DNA from: a virus
Virus record (IMG/VR): IMGVR_UViG_3300021478_000002
Span: 6,798 to 70,797 of that record
Reading direction: 5' to 3' (one strand)
DNA: 64,000 nucleotides
Position 1 is the first letter of the stretch. Each line of letters begins with the position of its first letter. The notes under the pieces were generated by a model. That model saw only the letters and a list, made by a program, of their open reading frames with translations, was not told the DNA's origin and searched no databases. Below are positions 2,972 through 60,664 of the stretch, in pieces. Both the position numbers and the translations under genes were made by a program.

Positions 2972-3327
2972 TGGACTTCGATTCGTTGGTAGCCACGATG
3001 GACGACACGCTGGTCGCGACCTTTCAGAAAGTCGACCCGGCGGCAGGTGTTCTCCAGGTCACGCTGCATCCCAACGACGCGACCGGCGACGTCACGGTGT
3101 CCTGCATTGTGAAGAACCCGATCATGGAAGAGGATTATACGCCGGGCAGCCAGACCGGCACCTCCATGCTGACCCTGTTCATCCCGGCATCGGCTGGCGT
3201 GGTGGCGCTGCGCGGCCAGACAGCGACCTACAACGGCGTCGACTACGACGTCCTGCAATCCGATGCCGACCGCTGCGGCGGCGTGCATATCCGCATGCGC
3301 GCACGCACGCAGCCGTACAGCCAGTGA
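2971..3327 (+). CDS. Head-tail joining/closure protein (gpFII-like)
   Basis: 118 aa beta-rich protein; position between head and tail genes. Confidence 0.6.
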   Translation: MDFDSLVATMDDTLVATFQKVDPAAGVLQVTLHPNDATGDVTVSCIVKNPIMEEDYTPGSQTGTSMLTLFIPASAGVVALRGQTATYNGVDYDVLQSDADRCGGVHIRMRARTQPYSQ

Positions 3328-3337
3328 GGCCTATTGA

Positions 3338-3985
3338 ATGCTCGACCCGGATATCGTTCTCAGTTCGGTGCTGGCCTCGCTGCAATCGATCCCTGATTTG
3401 GCGACGGAACTGGGTGCGCCCACTATCCCAGCGACCGACTCGATTACGGGCCATTTTTTTTATAGCGGCGAGGAGAACGCCTACATCCGCTCGCTCGCGC
3501 TGATGAAGAGCCCCTCCATCCTGCTGGCCTACCTCGATTACATCATGGGCAACTATGATGGCATGACCGTCTGGAAGCACCGGATGAATCTCTGCATCCG
3601 CTCGCGCAATAAGGCGTCCAACGGCAGCGCCGCCACAGCGCAGCATATCTGGTGGATGGCCATGAACCTGCCGATCTCGGTGCCGCAGGTCGCGCCCAAC
3701 ATCCGCTACGTGGATCTGGCGGGCGGCATGCTGTGGCTCTTCGAGACCAATCTGAAGCACCAGACGGACGAGCTGGGCCAGGACTTCTTCATTGGCACCA
3801 TGGTCTTCAACGAATACGGTGACGCGGGACCGGACGGCCAGGAGTTCCTGAACGTTGGGCCCAGCAGGCTGGTTCAGCTTGCGCCCACGGTTGACGGCTT
3901 CGCGCATGCGATCAGGCAGAATTTATCCGCCGACGAACGGCGACAGCTCCTCGAAGGAATCACAGAGGAACAAGGAGTCAGTTAA
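3338..3985 (+). CDS. Putative tail terminator/completion protein
   Basis: Immediately upstream of tail tube gene; size. Confidence 0.5.
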   Translation: MLDPDIVLSSVLASLQSIPDLATELGAPTIPATDSITGHFFYSGEENAYIRSLALMKSPSILLAYLDYIMGNYDGMTVWKHRMNLCIRSRNKASNGSAATAQHIWWMAMNLPISVPQVAPNIRYVDLAGGMLWLFETNLKHQTDELGQDFFIGTMVFNEYGDAGPDGQEFLNVGPSRLVQLAPTVDGFAHAIRQNLSADERRQLLEGITEEQGVS

Positions 3986-5295: not shown

Positions 5296-6000
5296 ATGTA
5301 CGGTGAGCTGTTTCTCATCAAAACGACGCAGGGCGGCGAGATTCCGGCGATCCCCATCGTCATCCAGAACCCGGCCAAGGTCGCGGCGCTGCGTCTCCCG
5401 ACCGCCGAGGAGATCAGCGCCTATACCGGCAGCATCCGGCAGGTGATCCACCGGCTGGGCCGCCGCCAGAGCGAAGATCGCGACGTGCCCAACACCGAGG
5501 CCGAGCGCAAGCTCTTCGACGCGATCCGTCTGGACAGAACCGGCGACGAGTTCGACGAAGCGGAGATGCGCCACTCCATCGATCTGGTGTTGCGCCACAA
5601 CGTGATCGCCTGTGAGCGCGACGGCGATCAGTACGTGATCAAAGTCAACACCCTCTGGGGCGTTACCTCTCACACCTGCCGTATCCCCACCACGCGCGAA
5701 CTGCAGAACTACCGGGAAGGCGTCATCAAGTCGCGCGAGCTGCCCCACAACGTCGAGGAGCGCCGCTTCCCGCCGGAAGCGCCGGTGCAGTTCTATAACG
5801 CGATCATCACGGCGGTAGAAGGGTACGCGCCGCAGTTCAACGTGCCCATCGGCACCGTCAACGGCAACCGGCATGTGCTCGAAGGCGCGGAGCTGAAGGC
5901 GCTCCTGCCGCAGATCCCGCCGCACCATAAACGCAGCGTGGCGGGCGAAGTCTCCAGCGCACTCTATGATCTCGACCCGCAACTTGACCCAAACGCATAG
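5296..6000 (+). CDS. Tail assembly chaperone (gpG-like)
   Basis: After tail tube; ends ...LDPNA over slippery heptamer C CCA AAC. Confidence 0.75.
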   Translation: MYGELFLIKTTQGGEIPAIPIVIQNPAKVAALRLPTAEEISAYTGSIRQVIHRLGRRQSEDRDVPNTEAERKLFDAIRLDRTGDEFDEAEMRHSIDLVLRHNVIACERDGDQYVIKVNTLWGVTSHTCRIPTTRELQNYREGVIKSRELPHNVEERRFPPEAPVQFYNAIITAVEGYAPQFNVPIGTVNGNRHVLEGAELKALLPQIPPHHKRSVAGEVSSALYDLDPQLDPNA

Positions 6001-36783: not shown

Positions 36784-37704
36784 ATGCCGTTACTCAACAG
36801 CATACTCGAAATCCACAATCTGTCCAGTGGGGCACACCGGGCTTTAATTGGCTTGTTATCGTTCCGAAACAAAGCCAATGGGCAGTGTAATCCGAAGATG
36901 GAGACGCTGGGAGAACGCCTGGGCGGAATCCCCGAGCGCACATTACGCCGCTGGTTGCACGAGCTGCGGCTCGCCGGTGTAGTGTACGCGACCAAACATC
37001 GCGGGTCGAATTCCTACCGGATTAACATTTCCACAGACTGTGAAAAACCGGCTGTGGAAAACGCTCAAGACCGGCCAAAAGTGGCCGCTCAAGACCGGCC
37101 AAAAGTGGCCGCTCAAGACCGGCCAAAAATGGCCGGTCTCAACGCTCGTATCCTTACTGAACAGACAGTATTGAACAGACAGAGGGGAACCGCCGCCGCC
37201 GACGTACACGCTATACGTGTGGAAAAGGCGGCGGCGGCGGCACTGCCCTTGTTTGATGAAATCGAAACCCCAACACCCCAGGCCGAGGCTGAGAAGCTGG
37301 TGGCCGAGCTGATGCCGCAGCACCCGGAGCCGGGCAATTTGCCTAAGGCCATCAACGAAGCTGCAAAGCTCCTGGCCAGCAGGCCGGAGACGCTCACGGC
37401 GACCATCGAGACCCTCCGGCGCAACCACGGGCTCTGGCGGGCGCGCTGGGCCACGTATGCCGCCGGTCGATTCGTGCCGCAGTTGTGGCGCTGGTTTCAT
37501 GACGGCGACTGGGAACATCCGCCGGTGGACCGGAAACCGGTGCAGAGCGAGACGTGGCACGAGCGCCACGAGCGGGAACGCAAGGAATCGGACGAGGAAA
37601 ATTACCGGCGTTATGCCGAGCTAGGTATGTGGTCGGCGCTGCGCGAGTATGGCGGCGATGCTCTTGTGGAGGTATGGCGTGAGAAAGTCAAAGCTGTTGG
37701 ATGA
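36784..37704 (+). CDS. Replication initiator (N-terminal winged HTH, lambda O-like)
   Basis: GQCNPKMETLGERLGGIPERTLRRWLHEL...SNSY; internal iterons. Confidence 0.85.
   Translation: MPLLNSILEIHNLSSGAHRALIGLLSFRNKANGQCNPKMETLGERLGGIPERTLRRWLHELRLAGVVYATKHRGSNSYRINISTDCEKPAVENAQDRPKVAAQDRPKVAAQDRPKMAGLNARILTEQTVLNRQRGTAAADVHAIRVEKAAAAALPLFDEIETPTPQAEAEKLVAELMPQHPEPGNLPKAINEAAKLLASRPETLTATIETLRRNHGLWRARWATYAAGRFVPQLWRWFHDGDWEHPPVDRKPVQSETWHERHERERKESDEENYRRYAELGMWSALREYGGDALVEVWREKVKAVG
37028..37134. repeat. Putative replication origin: three 24-bp iterons plus inverted TTTCCACAG pair
   Basis: GCTCAAGACCGGCCAAAARTGGCC x3 at 37063-37134; TTTCCACAG (37028) / CTGTGGAAA (37052). Confidence 0.75.
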
Positions 37705-53972: not shown

Positions 53973-54130
53973 ACTCAGTTTTTACCGTATCGCCGCCACA
54001 GCGACTAGCCCTCGCGTCCACGGCGGCGTTCCCACTCCATGTGTAGCCGCTTAACCTTGCCGGGGTGGGGCAACACGGGGCAGCTTTCATTACGGGCTGC
54101 CCCGTTCCAACTCCGTTAAGGAGAAGACCT

Positions 54131-54295
54131 ATGACGATATCAGTCCTGTTTCTGGTGATCGCAATCGTGCTCTTCGCGCTCGGTTCCTGGAGCCGCTGGT
54201 GGGCCACCCAGCAGCAAGCCTACTACCCGACCTTCGTCTGCGGCGGCCTGTTCTTCTGGGCCCTCTCCCAGCTCTGGCCGATGCTCGCCAAGTAA
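54131..54295 (+). CDS. Small two-TM membrane protein (possible holin)
   Basis: AAGGAG RBS; two hydrophobic helices in 54 aa. Confidence 0.55.
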   Translation: MTISVLFLVIAIVLFALGSWSRWWATQQQAYYPTFVCGGLFFWALSQLWPMLAK

Positions 54296-54540
54296 CAAAG
54301 TCCTCCATCCCTCCCTGGCTCACCAAGTGAGCCCGCTCCCGCGTTAAGGAACATTAATTTTGACACGTGTGCCTCGCGCCGGTCGTGGCATTCCCAGCAC
54401 GTCACGCGCTTGCCGATGAACAATCGCAGGCGAGTCAGGTCCGTCACCGGCACCACGTAACGGTGCCCGCAGGCGAGAACCACCAGATACTCCTGCGGCC
54501 CCAGCCGGTGGAGCCCGATGACGGTGGTCCTGGTGTCCAT
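54223..54540 (-). CDS. Small L.CGH...CxxC Zn protein
   Basis: LACGH...LFIGKRVTCWEC, similar to the 44340 protein. Confidence 0.45.
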   Translation of the reverse strand: MDTRTTVIGLHRLGPQEYLVVLACGHRYVVPVTDLTRLRLFIGKRVTCWECHDRREAHVSKLMFLNAGAGSLGEPGRDGGLCYLASIGQSWERAQKNRPPQTKVG

Positions 54541-54673
54541 ATCGGGTCGCGCCGCCAAATTCTACCATCAACGCCGCCCGCGCCACTCTTGACAACTGCA
54601 TGCAGATCAACAACTTACAGGCCATAACTTCATAGTTAGCTCTAAGTCGGTGTGTCAATATCGCGCGTTTTGG

Positions 54674-54719
54674 GCACTGCGGACACCCGCCCGCTGCACC
54701 ACCCCTGAGGGTAGGACCC
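54674..54719 (-). other. Candidate cos site (cosQ/cosN-like) on minus strand
   Basis: Minus strand GGGTCCT, 20 bp, then GGGCGGGTGTCC in a GCGG/CCGC dyad; IHF-like ATCAACAACTTA at 54606; GpA-type terminase. Confidence 0.4.
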
Positions 54720-54880
54720 AAAAACATTCGCGTGCTAAGTGCGTTCAAAACGCGCGCCCGCTGCGTTAACGTGCGCTAAGTGATTGAAAGTAAGTGCGGG
54801 TTTCGGACGCGCCCATCTTAGGGCATTTACGACCCACTTACTACCACCCGTACATACCCTATGTCCTAAGGTGTTGACTT

Positions 54881-55807
54881 ATGACCAACACCAAACGCAA
54901 CACCACGAAGCACACGACCACGAAGCACAGCAAACCCGCGAACTATCGCAATATTCTGCAATTGCAGAATGCGAAAACCACAAAGGGCGAAGCGCTCGGG
55001 TACATAACTGGTATCTCGTATCTCGCACCCGCTAACGAATCGGGAGTTATGAATACTTGCCAATTCGCCACAACAGGCCCCGACGGCTGTCTAGATGTAT
55101 GTATCTATAAACAGGGTCGCGGGCGATTCACCAACACCATTAAGGCGCGCATCGCGAAGACAGTCTTTTTGCATGAGCACCGCGAGGACTTCTTAAACAG
55201 TTTGCGTTTTGACATTGAAGCGCTGCGGCTGAAAGCTTCGAAGCTTCGATTCTGCGCAGCATGCGCCACTATCGTGAAGGCGCGCACTAGCAAGGGTCGC
55301 GAGCGCCGCAATTGCCGCAAGTGTGGTAACGCGCTTGTGGCTGTGAAGTTTGCGGTACGTATCAATGGAACATCGGATCTAGCGTGGATACCGATGCAAA
55401 TGTCGGCTGAATTCCCCGACGTCGAATTCTATGACTACACGAAGCTTCCGAAACCGTTTTTGCGCACGCGTCCCAACTATGCAATCACTTTCAGCCACAC
55501 AGGTTACAACGCGTCCGATTGCATGCAAGCGCTCGCGAATGGTGTAAATGTGGCTGTCGCATTTGCGCTCAAAAAAGGGCAGCCGCTACCCGAGACTTGG
55601 AACGGGTACAACGTCATAGACGGAGATACTCACGACTTGCGCTTTTTGGACGCGCGCGCGGTCGTGGTGGGTCTCCGTGGCAAGGGTACTTCGTGGAAAC
55701 AGCCGACCGCGTTTATGGTAGATCCGAACGCGCAAACGCAAACCTGCATTATGCCAGCACTAATTCAGATCACAGCCGCAGCACAGCCGCAGCAAATCGC
55801 AGCATAA
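54881..55807 (+). CDS. GP88-like protein (possible Fe-S/radical-SAM-like) with Zn-ribbon insertion
   Basis: NAKT.KG...YLAPA...C(x9)C(x3)C...GRG...RINGTSD...FYDYTK...TFS...IDGD.HDLRFLD...GL..KG. Confidence 0.7.
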   Translation: MTNTKRNTTKHTTTKHSKPANYRNILQLQNAKTTKGEALGYITGISYLAPANESGVMNTCQFATTGPDGCLDVCIYKQGRGRFTNTIKARIAKTVFLHEHREDFLNSLRFDIEALRLKASKLRFCAACATIVKARTSKGRERRNCRKCGNALVAVKFAVRINGTSDLAWIPMQMSAEFPDVEFYDYTKLPKPFLRTRPNYAITFSHTGYNASDCMQALANGVNVAVAFALKKGQPLPETWNGYNVIDGDTHDLRFLDARAVVVGLRGKGTSWKQPTAFMVDPNAQTQTCIMPALIQITAAAQPQQIAA

Positions 55808-55819
55808 GGGGAAAAAACG

Positions 55820-56077
55820 ATGAACACACAGCCGATGTATCTTGACGGAGTATTGACAGCACGTGAAGTTATGGCCACGAATGACAGCGCGCGCCTTATG
55901 TGGCGCATGGTGTGGCGCTCTATGCGCCATTGTGGCGGAATGGAGCGCGCGGACGCGCTGCTATTGGCACACCACACCACACGCGTGGCAATGCGCGCGC
56001 GTTTGCTCGCATGCGCCTATAGCGCGGTGTGGCTGTCAAGCTGGGAGAGAATGTCACTCTCGGGAGATGTGCGCTAA
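55820..56077 (+). CDS. Hypothetical protein
   Basis: AAGGGG RBS; 85 aa. Confidence 0.5.
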   Translation: MNTQPMYLDGVLTAREVMATNDSARLMWRMVWRSMRHCGGMERADALLLAHHTTRVAMRARLLACAYSAVWLSSWERMSLSGDVR

Positions 56078-56265
56078 TGGCACGCGTCATTTGGTCCGCG
56101 CGCTGCAAATCGGGGTATACGTTCAAGGGTCGTATCTGCAATCGCGCCACACCGCGCGGAATGCTCCTATGCTCTGATTGCCTTACAGCCGAACGCATCC
56201 CAGCACAGCCGAAATTAGGCGTATTGCGCGCGCTGCTAGTGGCTGTGCTCGCGATTTGGCGCTAA
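56077..56265 (+). CDS. Small Cys-containing protein with C-terminal hydrophobic tail
   Basis: TAATG coupling; C...C...CSDC; LRALLVAVLAIWR. Confidence 0.5.
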   Translation: MARVIWSARCKSGYTFKGRICNRATPRGMLLCSDCLTAERIPAQPKLGVLRALLVAVLAIWR

Positions 56266-56315
56266 GATGCGCACGGTATCCCGTCTATATGATGGGTGTC
56301 CGTTTGCACCTTAGA

Positions 56316-56782
56316 CCACAGCCACGCGGGCGACCACAGCCGCAGCACAGCCACGGACAGCCGCAGCCGCAGCCACGCGGGCGACCACCACGGGCGATAG
56401 CTCCACAGCCACGCGGGCGACCCTCACACCACAGCCACGCACAGCCACAGCCACGGGCGACAGCCACGGGCAATAGCTCCACACCACAGCCACGCGGGCG
56501 ACCACAGCCACGCGGGCGACCCTCACACCACAGCCACAGCCACGGACAGCCGCAGCGCGGGCGACCCTCACGCGGGCGACAGCACAGCCACGGACAGCCA
56601 CGGGCGATAGCTCCACAGCCGCAGCCGCAGCACAGCCACGGGCGACCACAGCCACGCGGGCGACCCTCACAGCCGCAGCGCGGGCGACAGCCGCAACACA
56701 GCCACGGACAGCCACGCGGGCGACCACAGCCACGGACACCACAGCCGCAGCGCGGGCGACAGCCACGCGGGCGACCACAGCG
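56316..56782. repeat. Mosaic short-unit array (ACAGC, CGGGCGA, CCTCA, ATAGCTC)
   Basis: About 28 ACAGC and about 16 CGGGCGA by eye, all one orientation; almost no T on + strand. Confidence 0.9.
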
Positions 56783-57119
56783 CGCGCAAATCACTGAAAA
56801 GACACGAAATACCGCGCGTTTACGCGTGCCATGGCGCGTCCGCGCCACTACTCACGCGTGTATTGCTCCTATCGGTAGGCAAGGGGAGAAACCCTACCGC
56901 CATGAAAACAAAGGGGCGTTAACGTTCTGGCGCGCATCCGCCACGTTACACCGGTGTGGTACTGTGCATTTCACCCCGATAGTACGAAAAACGGGGTAGT
57001 TTTCGCCAGACGTAGAAAATTTGCGGGCACTTTTTGGGCACGGCCAATTTCAAAAAGCAATTTGGATTTTTTCGGGAGGGTGGCCCGGCGCTGGGCTGGC
57101 GCGCACTTGAAGTGGTAGA

Positions 57120-57440
57120 GTGATGCCAATGTTCCGGCTGGTAAAAACACTCGACACCGCCGAGCCCGCCTACTTCCTGCTGTGCGATCACCGGCAATGC
57201 ATGGAAGCCCGGCGCGGCAACGCCGTGGTGTCGAACAGCGATGACTATCAACTCAGCAAGCGCACGTTTCTGAAGGCCGCCATTGCGGAAGGCTGGTGGG
57301 TGGATCTCGAAGGTGCGTTTTGTCCACCGCATGCGCGCGAGATGCTACACGCCGCGCGTGAAATCATCGAGAAGGGCAAGCAGGTGGTGGAGGCGGCGCG
57401 GCCTGAGCAGATCCTGGCCTTTGGAAAGGGACGAGTATGA
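57120..57440 (+). CDS. Hypothetical Zn-binding protein
   Basis: CDH..C...GW....FCP.H. Confidence 0.6.
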   Translation: MMPMFRLVKTLDTAEPAYFLLCDHRQCMEARRGNAVVSNSDDYQLSKRTFLKAAIAEGWWVDLEGAFCPPHAREMLHAAREIIEKGKQVVEAARPEQILAFGKGRV

Positions 57441-58000
57441 AGAAAGCACCGCCTGCAACCAAGGTCGTGCAAGTGGGCGTCAACGCGCTGGCGCGTGAAG
57501 TCGGTCTGACGCCGACCACCATCAGTAAGAAACTGAAGCAAGGCCAGACGCCTGAACAGATCCGCCGCGATGCCGCGCGCAGGCAGGGCCGTGAGCCATC
57601 GCCGACAGGTACGCCCCCAAGCCGGGGCCGCGCGCCGGTGGGTCAACCACCCCGCTCCGAGTACGACATGGTCATCAAGGGCCGCGAGCGCCTGGACAAC
57701 ATCGATGAAGCCAAGCTGCGCCGGGCGCGTGCGCTGGCCGAGCGCGGCGAGCTGGACAACATGCTCAAGCGCGGCGAACTGATTCCGGTCGCGCACGTGC
57801 GCCAGTGGGGCTCGCGATTCCTGACCGATGCCCGCGACACACTCATGGCGGGTCCAAGCGAATTACAGGACACGCTGGCTGCCGAAGATGACCCGCTGAA
57901 AGTGCAGGCGATCTTGCGCGCGTGGCTGGAGCGTGTGATGGCCAAGTTCCATCAATGCGAACGGCTGTGGGGCATTGGCGACGAAGAGCAGGTGGCGTGA
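57437..58000 (+). CDS. Terminase small subunit
   Basis: N-terminal HTH (NALAREVGLTPTTISK); A...EL......GELIP motif of Nu1-like proteins; upstream of large subunit. Confidence 0.75.
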   Translation: MKKAPPATKVVQVGVNALAREVGLTPTTISKKLKQGQTPEQIRRDAARRQGREPSPTGTPPSRGRAPVGQPPRSEYDMVIKGRERLDNIDEAKLRRARALAERGELDNMLKRGELIPVAHVRQWGSRFLTDARDTLMAGPSELQDTLAAEDDPLKVQAILRAWLERVMAKFHQCERLWGIGDEEQVA

Positions 58001-58606: not shown

Positions 58607-60664
58607 GTGAGCGCCGCTCCCACCTTGCTGATCCCCGGCTTTCCGTGGCCGCCGCCGGTGCTGGGCGAGTTCCGCGAGATCTTCCGCGTCCGTCCCAAGG
58701 TCCCGTTGTCGGAGTGGAGCGAGAGCAACATCGTGCTCTCGCCGGAATACAGCAATTCGACCGGACCACTCATGCTTTTCGGCTGGCAGCGCGCGATCTT
58801 CGATGCCATCACCGATCCGAGCATCGAGACCGTGGTGATCATGTCGAGCACGCAGGTGGTGAAGTCGCTCGCGCTGATGTGCGCCATCGCGTACTGGATC
58901 TGCGAAGACCCTGGCCCGATTTTGTTGGTCGAGCCGAAGAAAGACGCCGCACGCGATTTCTCCAAGCGCCGCCTGATGCCGCTGACGCGCGACTGCACCG
59001 TGCTGCACGGGCGCATCTCCGACAGCGTGCACGACGGCCACAATACGATTCAGAGCAAAGATTTTCCCGGCGGCAACCTGCTGATCGTCTCCGCGCACAC
59101 ACCGGTGGATCTGGCGCAGCACACCATCCGCTATCTCGTATGCGATGAGGTGGACAAGTACGACGACGACGTGGGCGGCAGCGTCGAGCGCCAGGGCGAA
59201 GGCGATCCCATCGATCTGGCCTGGGAGCGCGCCATGACGTTCGGCAGCAGGCGCAAGCGCGTGCTCGCATGTTCGCCGACTGTCGCCGGTCAGAGCCGCA
59301 TCGGCAAGGCCTTCGCGCTTTCCGATCAGCGGCGGCCATGGGTTCCGTGCCCGCGCTGCGGCGCGATGCAGGTGCTGAAATTCAGGGACCGTGACGGCTA
59401 TCACGTGAAGTGGGACAGCTCACTGGCGCGCGAGCTGCAAGCGGCCACGGCGCGCTATTACTGCGTTCGGTGCGACCGGCCATGGACGGAGCAGGAGCGG
59501 TGGAGCGCGGCCAATCACCAAGTCGAATGGAGGCAGGATAAGCCGGGCGCGGACCCGAAGATCGCCGGGTTCTGGGTCAACCACATGTACGTCCCGCCGA
59601 CCTGGAAAACGTGCGCCAGCATCGCCAACCAGTTTCTGACGGCGAAGGATGACCGGCAATCGCTCAAGACTTTCATCAACACGGTGCTCGCCGAGGAGTG
59701 GGTCGAGGAAGGTGTCGCGCCCGATAAGGAGATTCTCTACGCGCGCCGCGAGGGCTATGCGTTCGGCGATACGGCGGTGGTGCCGCAGCGCGGCCTGTTC
59801 CTCACCGCCGCATGCGATGTGCAGGAGAATCCGCCGCGCCTGGAAGTCGAAGTCAAGGCGTGGGGCCGTGGGCGCGAGAACTGGTCGATGGGCTATTGGA
59901 TTCTGCAGGCCTTCGCCGAGAACGGCCAGGAGCTGCCGGTCAGCGCGCGCGAGTTGTGGGACGCGCTCGATGAGCTGCTGTATCGCGACTGGGCGCACGA
60001 GAGCGGGCGCACGCTGTCGATCCTGGCGATCTGTATCGACACCGGCAGGAATCCGAAACCCGTCTACGAATTCGCGCGGCGGCCCGGCCACCATCAGCTC
60101 CACTACGGGCCGCAGGGCATCAAGATCATCGCGCACCGCACCGTCGTGCCGGTCAAGGGCACGGCGGATATGCTGCGCATCATTAGCGGCGTCTCGAAGG
60201 AAGACGCGGCGCGCAAACGCCAGGGCGTGCGCATCGTCAGCATCGGCACCAACTGCGTCAAGGCCGAAGTCTTCGATCTGCTGCGCCACGCGAGGCCGAC
60301 CGTGGATGGCAGCCCATCACCCGGCTGCTTCCACTTCCCACTGTATGAGATGGTGTATTTCGAAGGCCTCACATGCGAAGTGAAGATTGTCAAGTCTAAC
60401 GGCGATGTCGTGTATGAGAAACGCGGCCCACGCAATGAGCCGGTCGATTTGGCGGTCTACAATCGCGGCGCTGCCGCCATTGTTGGCATCGACAGAATGA
60501 ACGAAGAGCACTGGCGGCGCTTTGAGAAGGCCGTGGAGCCCGTCGGCGGCCCACCGGTGCCGCCACCAGCGCCTGCGCCAGCACCGGCAGCGCCTGCGCC
60601 GCGAGCAGCGGCACCGCCGATCACCATCCTGCCCGGCGGGCGCGGCGGCTTCCGGCGAGATTAA
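58607..60664 (+). CDS. Terminase large subunit (lambda GpA family)
   Basis: LSEWSE...WQRAI.D...DEVDKY...EGDP..LA.ER..TF...SPT...PCPRCG...FINTVLAE.W...CDVQ...IDTG...RNEPVD. Confidence 0.95.
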   Translation: MSAAPTLLIPGFPWPPPVLGEFREIFRVRPKVPLSEWSESNIVLSPEYSNSTGPLMLFGWQRAIFDAITDPSIETVVIMSSTQVVKSLALMCAIAYWICEDPGPILLVEPKKDAARDFSKRRLMPLTRDCTVLHGRISDSVHDGHNTIQSKDFPGGNLLIVSAHTPVDLAQHTIRYLVCDEVDKYDDDVGGSVERQGEGDPIDLAWERAMTFGSRRKRVLACSPTVAGQSRIGKAFALSDQRRPWVPCPRCGAMQVLKFRDRDGYHVKWDSSLARELQAATARYYCVRCDRPWTEQERWSAANHQVEWRQDKPGADPKIAGFWVNHMYVPPTWKTCASIANQFLTAKDDRQSLKTFINTVLAEEWVEEGVAPDKEILYARREGYAFGDTAVVPQRGLFLTAACDVQENPPRLEVEVKAWGRGRENWSMGYWILQAFAENGQELPVSARELWDALDELLYRDWAHESGRTLSILAICIDTGRNPKPVYEFARRPGHHQLHYGPQGIKIIAHRTVVPVKGTADMLRIISGVSKEDAARKRQGVRIVSIGTNCVKAEVFDLLRHARPTVDGSPSPGCFHFPLYEMVYFEGLTCEVKIVKSNGDVVYEKRGPRNEPVDLAVYNRGAAAIVGIDRMNEEHWRRFEKAVEPVGGPPVPPPAPAPAPAAPAPRAAAPPITILPGGRGGFRRD

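Follow-up and report, generated by a model that had tools for sequence, protein, structure and literature searches.

The locus and its features

The window analysed here is a 64,000-nucleotide (nt) stretch comprising bases 6798-70797 of the 70,797-bp virus record IMGVR_UViG_3300021478_000002, and the element in question is a mosaic array of short repeated words at its positions 56316-56782. Our analysis identifies this array as a fast-evolving, non-coding repeat element of the cos-adjacent accessory region in a clade of lambda-like cos phages, whose constant property is its polarity relative to genome transcription and not to cos. The phage itself is a 70.8-kb temperate, lambda-like phage with a terminase of the GpA type, with nearly all likely genes of the genome on the + strand. 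A temperate lifestyle is indicated by the large serine integrase and the RecE-like and RecT-like recombination proteins that it encodes, alongside a protein combining an HNH domain with a superfamily 2 (SF2) helicase. The "direct terminal repeat" annotated for the record is a 127-bp overlap between both contig ends, that is, an assembly overlap that differs from the virion ends mapped below. The features around the array, in window coordinates, are the following (ORF, open reading frame; aa, amino acids):

54223-54558, minus strand: ORF of 111 aa, downstream of cos in the cos orientation; family search without match
54667-54722, minus strand: canonical cos core, TTTGGGTCCT-N24-GGTGTCCGCAG-TGCCCAAAAC; single match in 70,797 bp
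54677-54687, minus strand: cosN with an 11-nt cohesive end; the minus strand reads GGTGTCCGCAG
54881-55807, plus strand: GP88-family protein, gp88 (PF17338, E 4.7e-32); first gene inward from the virion end
55820-56077 and 56029-56265, plus strand: two small overlapping ORFs between gp88 and the array
56316-56782, plus strand: the mosaic short-word array, C-rich and T-poor, with words around CAGCC, CCACG(C)GG and GGGCGAC
56783-57110, minus strand: flank termed the leader, with phased A/T tracts and GGGCAC motifs
57050-57108, plus strand: degenerate cos-like "site B", with GGCTGGCGCGC in place of the GGTGnnCnCAG of the relatives
57120-57440, plus strand: conserved ORF of 106 aa (orf106), upstream of terS
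57437-58000, plus strand: terminase small subunit TerS (phrog_57, E 4.4e-14)
58607-60664, plus strand: terminase large subunit TerL of the lambda GpA type (PF05876 and PF20454, E ~1e-62)

The placement of the array between the GP88-like gene and the terminase genes, as given in the original prediction made from the letters alone, is hence confirmed by profile searches.

A strand-polarised mosaic of short words

Over its 467 nt the + strand of the array contains 206 C, 139 G, 112 A and just 10 T (44%, 30%, 24% and 2% respectively). At 1.5-3% T over windows of 200 nt, it is lower in T than any other part of the 70,797-bp genome. Its vocabulary is small: the 462 positions contain 89 distinct 6-mers, whereas 300 dinucleotide-preserving shuffles averaged 287 and never fell below 267. 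Sixty-three different 8-mers occur at least three times in the array, and the count of their reverse complements there is zero, i.e. no inverted repeats are present within it by this measure. The words ACAGCCAC, CGGGCGAC and CACAGCCACG are found 19, 14 and 13 times respectively; the first recurs elsewhere in the genome once on the + strand and four times on the - strand, while the third is absent from the remainder of the genome on both strands. An 18-mer recurs 5-7 times. Tandem Repeats Finder, run over 55500-57500, gave 20 overlapping rows, the majority of which fall within the array; their periods range from 5 to 48, and no single period emerges. These observations bear out the original prediction as to the reality of the array, its single orientation and its lack of a fixed period. 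They do not support its description as an array of two short motifs, given that the grammar involves more than two, namely the centres CAGCC (29 copies) and GGGCGA (16 copies) together with linkers.

An assembly artefact is unlikely because the longest exact internal repeat is 36 nt, which 150-nt reads can bridge, and similar arrays are present in four independent assemblies. A 174-nt unitig of sequencing run X1, which may be the source sample, matches 56495-56668 with zero mismatches; run X2 contributes nothing on the array, and 57027-57194, the region of site B, lies outside both runs.

The genome's only inverted copies of the main word (GTGGCTGT), four in number, sit within 1 kb upstream of the array, at 55337, 55550, 56029 and 56239, and each of them encodes Val-Ala-Val within an ORF. 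The 3' end of gp88 (55768-55803) also has array-like words (CACAGCCGCAGCACAGCCGCAGC), being 81% similar to 56332-56367. These words may have seeded the array or spilled over from it.

Physical ends of the virion DNA and an inverted cos

In two runs from two different studies, one set of unitigs stops at 54687 and another starts at 54677, resulting in an 11-base overlap. Such a pattern is expected of 5'-protruding cohesive ends, presumably filled in during library preparation. The assumption of the original prediction that a DNA end lies near 54.7 kb is thereby substantiated, as is its assignment of the minus strand of the array as the strand ending 3' at this end. In the related phages the corresponding site lies upstream of orf106/terS and comprises TTTGGGTCCT, about 24 GC-rich bases, GGTG[GT]CCGCAG and TGCCCAAAAC, and the 11-nt cohesive ends of the window phage and its relatives have the consensus GGTG-N2-C-N-CAG. 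The contigs L007, L013, L016, L003 and L172 all begin at the first G of the 11-mer, give or take one base, and the 73,592-bp contig G001 has the 11-mer at both its start and its end. Two features of a lambda-type cos site were recovered, namely a TerL of the GpA family and defined ends with a short cohesive overlap.

The cosB side faces the terminase genes in L004, L005, L009, L011 and L015 but not in the window. Here cos, which is functional to judge from the unitig ends and whose core was aligned by eye with those of the relatives, is inverted relative to terS/terL, at a distance of 2.4 kb from orf106/terS. Directly upstream of orf106/terS, where the relatives have cos, the window instead has site B. 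When set beside the cos regions of L008, L009 and G001 and judged by eye, site B is probably a relic or pseudo-cos, maybe of an older arrangement. By analogy with lambda, packaging would start from the side with the words GTGCCCAAAAC and TAAGTC (54560-54676), and the end leading from 54677 into gp88 would be packaged last and ejected first. With the cos ends at 54677-54687, a distance of 1.6-2.1 kb separates the array from one end of the virion DNA (1639-2105 bases from 54677).

Arrays in related phages

The close relatives of the phage by TerL (72-90% identity) are 15 viral contigs and L172, all of them metagenomic, and one further related contig has been binned with a Terracidiphilus metagenome-assembled genome. 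Taken together, these sources make a host in the Acidobacteriota likely. No cultured phage exceeds 36% TerL identity to the window phage, and a DNA search of phage records recovered a single weak match of 164 nt. Among the five genomes of the clade with at least 2 kb readable beside cos, four have arrays, namely the window phage (one), L005 (two), G001 (one) and L167 (two), while L015 has none in the 4.7 kb left of cos. This count excludes L004, L009 and L011, with less than 500 nt left of cos, and L002/L173, whose 4.7 kb upstream of TerL lack a cos motif and which has no array; its contig ends in a T-poor stretch that reads as Gly/Pro-rich coding DNA on the opposite strand. The five arrays outside the window are listed with their distance from the cos end and their words:

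L005-1: 114 nt, 2399-2512 nt from the cos end; GGCGACCACGGGCTCACC
L005-2: 239 nt, 956-1194 nt from the cos end; CGCCAGCA and CGGA
G001: about 410 nt, 102-514 nt from the cos end; CCCCACCAC, GCGGCCCGCC and GTCGGCCC
L167-a: 225 nt, 4096-4320 nt from the cos end; units of 20-21 nt
L167-b: 158 nt, 1925-2082 nt from the cos end; 20-nt unit in 8 copies

On the strand that is sense for TerL all six arrays have a closely similar composition, with 43-47% C, 27-31% G, 0-9% T and a GC skew of -0.16 to -0.28. CCACG, like CACGG, is present in two or more same-strand copies in five of the six, and most between-phage pairs share repeated 6-mers on the same strand, the exceptions being the pairs with G001 and the pair of the window with L167-b. 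Beyond this shared core the words differ between phages whose TerL proteins are 74-85% identical, and they also differ between the two arrays of a single phage (L005-1 versus L005-2 and L167-a versus L167-b).

The 18-mer of the window array gave just four single chance matches in the viral collection, all in coding DNA, and no arrays were found at 32 loci of distant TerL relatives (L181-L212, ~24-35% identity). None of the 12 loci obtained by scanning metagenomes with TerL added a genome that includes a cos-left flank, and L167 was the sole new true cos among the 12 stretches obtained by a cos pattern scan. A 17-nt word of the leader was found in 24 stretches of the viral collection, which apart from the L005 contig are chance matches, 12 of them in one unrelated coding family, and hence form a poor control set. 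An association of arrays with gp88 is not established by the counts: the gp88 loci contain 13 arrays over 728 kb, this poor control has 1 over 175 kb and the TerL loci have 3 over 236 kb. Besides gp88, no protein family is common to at least three of the five cos-left regions, and two matches link pairs of them.

Array polarity follows the genes and not cos

All six arrays run in the same direction relative to TerL and most genes. Their relationship to the virion end is not constant in this manner: the strand that is 3'-ended at the cos end is C-rich in the five arrays of G001, L005 and L167 and G-rich in the window. The gene for gp88, which adjoins cos in the window, L004, L015 and L167, has the + orientation in the window and in G001 and the - orientation in L004, L015 and L167. 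Likewise, the leader of the window is inverted with respect to the array polarity when compared with the two leaders that precede the L005 arrays, as seen in the blastn alignments of window 56993-57092 with L005 1647-1546 (73% over 104 nt) and of window 57005-57088 with L005 2908-2828 (75% over 84 nt). Thus, array direction tracks genome direction, given that cos, gp88 and the leader flip while the polarity of the array holds.

As read from the annotated sequences, the arrays stand where rightward transcription units end. Within the window, and likewise in G001, the array comes after gp88 and the small ORFs, and both L005 arrays and L167-a face convergent minus-strand genes. A minus-strand hairpin with a T-run adjoins L005-1, L005-2 and L167-a (called by the scan for the first and by reading for the others), and a strong bidirectional intrinsic terminator with a 12-bp stem follows L167-b.

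The array is neither a gene nor a recognizable structured RNA

Just three of the six reading frames are open through the window array. In G001 stop codons close every one of the six frames of the array, the L005 words of 8, 9 and 12 nt do not keep frame, and the three ORFs spanning the window array match no Pfam family; together these results rule out a coding array and with it translation as a conserved protein. No Rfam family matched anywhere in the window at gathering thresholds, nor in 54300-57500 at E up to 5, and a tRNA search found none. Folding of the array relative to shuffles gave z-scores of +0.61 for the + strand and -0.58 for the - strand, offering no support for a structured RNA. 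A CRISPR array or repeat mimic was discarded, as the words of 4-26 nt have no fixed period, versus repeats of ~28-37 nt, and no Rfam family was matched. The array is also not the origin of replication, since the replication initiator (36784-37704; phrog_270, HTH_36, E 7.6e-11) carries its own iterons, three 24-bp direct repeats (GCTCAAGACCGGCCAAAAGTGGCC) at 37050-37140 inside the gene, which probably represent the origin in an arrangement like that of lambda O/ori.

A possible role of the sense RNA in transcription control

The constancy of polarity relative to transcription, and not to cos, points to action through the sense transcript. We consider it possible, although only tentatively, that the array acts via this RNA as a polar terminator that loads Rho, as an insulator or as a protein-binding tract. 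Transcription of the array, RNA as its active form and Rho or another protein as its partner are all inferred. The gp88 operon starts ~200 bp from the virion end and would be the first to enter the cell. Its transcription would then run into an untranslated gap of ~860 nt (56266 to ~57120), the core of which would be a 467-nt RNA tract that is C-rich, nearly U-free and devoid of a conserved frame or special fold. This tract could load Rho, or another protein recognising the CCACG/CACGG core, which would end or insulate rightward transcription ahead of the terminase operon. Rho requires a long C-rich sense tract that escapes translation, of at least 80 nt in a Rho utilization (rut) site. C exceeds G in all six arrays and the tracts are untranslated, although they are not G-poor. 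The conservation of the CCACG/CACGG core hints at a partner more specific than Rho. Of the hypotheses in the original prediction, a repetitive non-coding RNA sponge would be the one most compatible with a polarity that follows the direction of transcription. A sponge of the Csr/Rsm type is nevertheless unlikely: CsrA was found in none of the four candidate host genomes, and there is no Rfam match at E up to 5. Moreover, ACGGA is not a general feature of the arrays, with 5 copies in the window array and 17 in L005-2 but none by reading in L005-1 and L167-b.

Several observations weigh against a function of the sense transcript. G makes up 27-31% of the arrays and is not depleted as it is in classical rut sites, and at -168 kcal/mol for 501 nt the absolute folding energy is high. 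The mosaic grammar is left unexplained, as Rho requires neither repeats nor a conserved core, and L167-b already has its own intrinsic terminator. Neither the window region nor the L005 leaders yielded a promoter in a strict sigma-70 scan. The four inverted GTGGCTGT copies within 1 kb upstream are not predicted by an RNA model. T-poor stretches are also found in coding parts of the + strand, so that part of the array bias is general strand composition. Finally, the sample consists of six arrays from four phages, and the shared polarity may be inherited and not selected if all derive from one ancestral array.

Alternative explanations

Two further explanations are serious rivals to action through the sense RNA, though we regard each as doubtful. 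According to the first, the array is a double-stranded DNA platform, with dense sites for a sequence-specific phage or host protein that binds the CCACG(C)GG core in the style of an iteron, centromere or roadblock. This would account for the 18-21-nt units of several arrays, close to two helical turns (L167-b, L167-a and the 18-mer of the window), for the retention of a short core while flanking letters drift, as in arrays under concerted evolution, for the phased A/T tracts in the flank and for the confinement of the four inverted GTGGCTGT copies to the 1 kb upstream. All four of these copies, however, encode Val-Ala-Val within ORFs. The proposal also lacks a candidate binder, with gp88 as the only family common to at least three of the five cos-left regions. 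The iterons of the origin are located elsewhere, the core is not enriched elsewhere in the genome, the two arrays of one phage differ in words, and most proteins that bind double-stranded DNA need no strict strand polarity.

The second of these rivals, which we rate as equally doubtful, views the array as a by-product, i.e. a minisatellite-like tract in dispensable end DNA that was generated and reshuffled by replication slippage or RecE/RecT single-strand annealing, has no function of its own and inherited its composition from an ancestral tract. The cos ends of lambda are entry points for recombination of this kind. The near-perfect copies in mosaic order, the divergence of words between phages with 74-85% TerL identity, the RecE and RecT of the phage, the location 0.1-4.3 kb from the cos end and the existence of L015 without an array are all in line with such an origin. 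What it does not readily explain is that arrays are kept in four of the five genomes, two of which have two each, that T is held at 0-9% with the core words retained, and that polarity remained unflipped where cos, gp88 and the leader flipped. Furthermore, several hundred useless bases are rarely retained in phage genomes.

A Chi-like array, one of the hypotheses of the original prediction, appears improbable. Under this scenario the array would modulate a host helicase-nuclease of the AddAB/RecBCD type entering at the free cos end, and thereby protect the DNA behind it or start recombination-dependent growth. The part of the proposal that stands is the geometry of the window, with an end at 54677 at which the G-rich strand (GGCTGTGG, GCGTGGCTG) is 3'-ended, and a precedent in the lambdoid phages LLS and MD8, which have 20-32 Chi sites in active orientation clustered at the right cos end (PMC12315714). 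Three of the four candidate hosts encode ORFs of 892-1055 aa that are AddB-like, below the family cut-off. The part that does not stand is its extension to the relatives, since the five arrays of G001, L005 and L167 have the opposite polarity to the window array when each is compared with the cos end of its own genome. The same Chi word cannot be active in both the window phage and these relatives. The check for over-representation that had been suggested, made with two words in candidate hosts, gave counts at or below control: GGCTGTGG had counts of 102/104 against 136/120 for the control in one genome, and CCACGCGG was at control level in three genomes. RecC was found in none of the four candidate host genomes, and the words form one compact non-coding block instead of being spread through the genome. 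The phage also has its own RecE/RecT, whereas the Chi-rich phages of the cited study are those that lack a Rec module (PMC12315714).

A packaging element, with sites or decoys for TerS or a cos-binding factor that could slow the motor or aid termination upstream of cos, is in our estimation very unlikely. The arrays of G001, L005 and L167 do lie on the cosQ side of cos, the window array is ~300 bp from the degenerate site B, and the leader shares with cos the GGGCAC plus T-run and GGGAGGGTG motifs. The words adjacent to cosN that are kept in all relatives (GTGCCCAAAAC and TAAGTC) are, however, absent from the array vocabulary, and array words are phage-specific where cosN and its flanks are conserved. 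Hence, the earlier suggestion of TerS binding is not supported. Nor does the array have the position of cosB R sites for TerS, as it lies on the other side of cos. In addition, its polarity in the window is reversed relative to the packaging direction, L015 and L004 have cos and no array, and the distance to cosN ranges from 0.1 to 4.3 kb.

The remaining candidates, namely a T5-like injection stop (also raised in the original prediction), a repetitive protein-coding gene and an assembly artefact, are together highly implausible: the first could draw on the position of the array 1.6-2.1 kb from the end ejected first by lambda analogy, behind three small genes, and the second on the three open frames, but the end distance varies from 102 to 4320 nt over the six arrays, polarity to the end is not conserved and inverted copies are missing from the window array, and the closed G001 frames, the missing Pfam match, the 36-nt longest repeat and the four independent assemblies argue against the other two.

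Comparison with known repeat systems

The array belongs with the short-repeat arrays in non-coding DNA near cos, although our literature searches on cos-proximal repeats and on Acidobacteriota phages found no description of arrays of this kind. In lambda the cos region is organized as cosQ-cosN-cosB, with R sites bound by gpNu1 and a 12-nt 5' cohesive end. The window phage resembles it in the terminase family, the short 5' cohesive end (here 11 nt) and the presence of repeats in non-coding DNA nearby. It differs in that the array is not placed between cosN and terS, shares no words with the conserved cos flanks and varies among phages with the same cos, and in that the whole cos of the window is inverted with respect to the terminase genes. 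Arrays of short direct units are also typified by the iterons of lambda ori, plasmid parC and the heptad arrays of omega protein, with which the arrays share one orientation, a partly ~20-bp unit and a position beside phased A/T tracts. Unlike these systems, they have no initiator or partition gene nearby, the phage has its own iterons inside its initiator gene, the units are irregular and the words differ within a phage. The stoperators of mycobacteriophage L5 are asymmetric repressor sites that are oriented with transcription, single and dispersed through the genome. The asymmetry of the sites, an orientation that follows transcription and a temperate phage are points in common, but the array words are gathered in one block with no copies at other intergenic sites.

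With rut sites the arrays have in common that they are long sense-strand tracts, untranslated and with more C than G, that close a transcription unit and are no more structured than expected by chance. They differ from rut sites in their undepleted G and in being built from exact repeated words with a conserved core, for which a rut site has no need. In LLS and MD8, Chi is clustered at the right cos end in an active orientation that is set by cos (PMC12315714). As in the window, short words rich in G and confined to one strand are concentrated close to the free (right) cos end in phages with a GpA-type terminase, and the orientation in the window relative to the end corresponds to the active one. 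The sites of LLS and MD8 are the known host Chi octamer, dispersed over kilobases of coding DNA in phages with no Rec module. Here, several words form a compact non-coding block in a phage with RecE/RecT, the relatives are reversed and there is no enrichment in candidate hosts.

Neighbouring genes and arrays in distant gp88 phages

The high-confidence predicted structure of gp88 (predicted local distance difference test score, pLDDT, 89) has radical S-adenosylmethionine (SAM) enzymes as 19 of its 20 top structure matches, with weak Z-scores of 4.8-6.3 and including QueE, pyruvate formate-lyase (PFL) activase, spore photoproduct lyase and viperin, and the cysteines C60, C70 and C74 are invariant across 37 sequences. 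The fold of gp88 is thus predicted from the model to be radical-SAM-like. Searches by sequence against the PDB found no match, Foldseek returned nothing at E up to 0.001, and literature searches for GP88 returned papers on progranulin. In several cultured podophages gp88 lies within 2 kb of the record start. The two small ORFs behind gp88 matched no family in profile searches, and the second of them (56029-56265) has a weak relative in L015.

A conserved promoter-like -10 element, TGGTAGAGT, precedes orf106 at 57113-57121. This motif is conserved 8-10 nt before the ATG of orf106/terS (57113-57129 in the window, with homologous sites in L002-L009). The short spacing between TGGTAGAGT and the ATG suggests that transcripts starting at this motif may be leaderless. 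Contigs L050 and L055 begin precisely at TAGAGT. On the far side of cos, a TTGTCA...TAGAAT promoter-like site precedes the minus-strand 111-aa ORF, on which a small membrane-protein ORF (54065-54295, plus strand) converges with an overlap of ~70 nt, the true ends being uncertain.

Two further repeat arrangements were encountered in other gp88-bearing contigs. In L069, a distant gp88 phage (5740-6540 and 8440-8610), five tandem units each have a sigma-70-like promoter, a conserved start of ~35 nt (ATGAAGAAATCAATCTACAAAAGAAATATT) and then 130-200 nt of NGGTCT hexamers. These units could specify small RNAs or, reading MKKSIYKRNIWS and then X-Ser repeats, small ORFs, and the invariance of the Ser codon points to constraint at the nucleotide level. 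In L150, a contig of Microvirga massiliensis, four mosaic arrays (3171-3521 and 5341-5831) flank a gp88 homologue, with the words GCTCGAG, GCCTGGCAC and GCTCCTGGCGTGCC, some of them in both orientations.

Implications

Non-coding DNA is scarce in phages and usually marks a control point, and here a clade of uncultured soil phages keeps several hundred fast-changing, one-stranded bases beside its packaging site. Irrespective of function, the analysis has yielded useful by-products: the 11-nt ends have been mapped in the phage and its relatives, cos is seen to be capable of inversion with respect to the terminase genes, and the repeat of the record is explained as an assembly overlap. A speculative proposal, to which we attach a rather low likelihood, is that the arrays and their conserved flanks constitute a new phage module of spacer-less, rapidly reshuffled arrays of short words that act as polar decoys for a host machine, with Rho or a nuclease of the AddAB type as candidates. 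In such a module the sense strand would be read as RNA or as a displaced DNA strand, in step with the direction of the genome. If such a module exists, the promoter-leader-hexamer units of L069 would represent a second lineage of the same principle. Action of the arrays through RNA or as polar decoys would amount to a form of control over transcription or host nucleases that is undescribed for lambda-like phages, and it would also offer a handle on the biology of Acidobacteriota phages, about which almost nothing is known.

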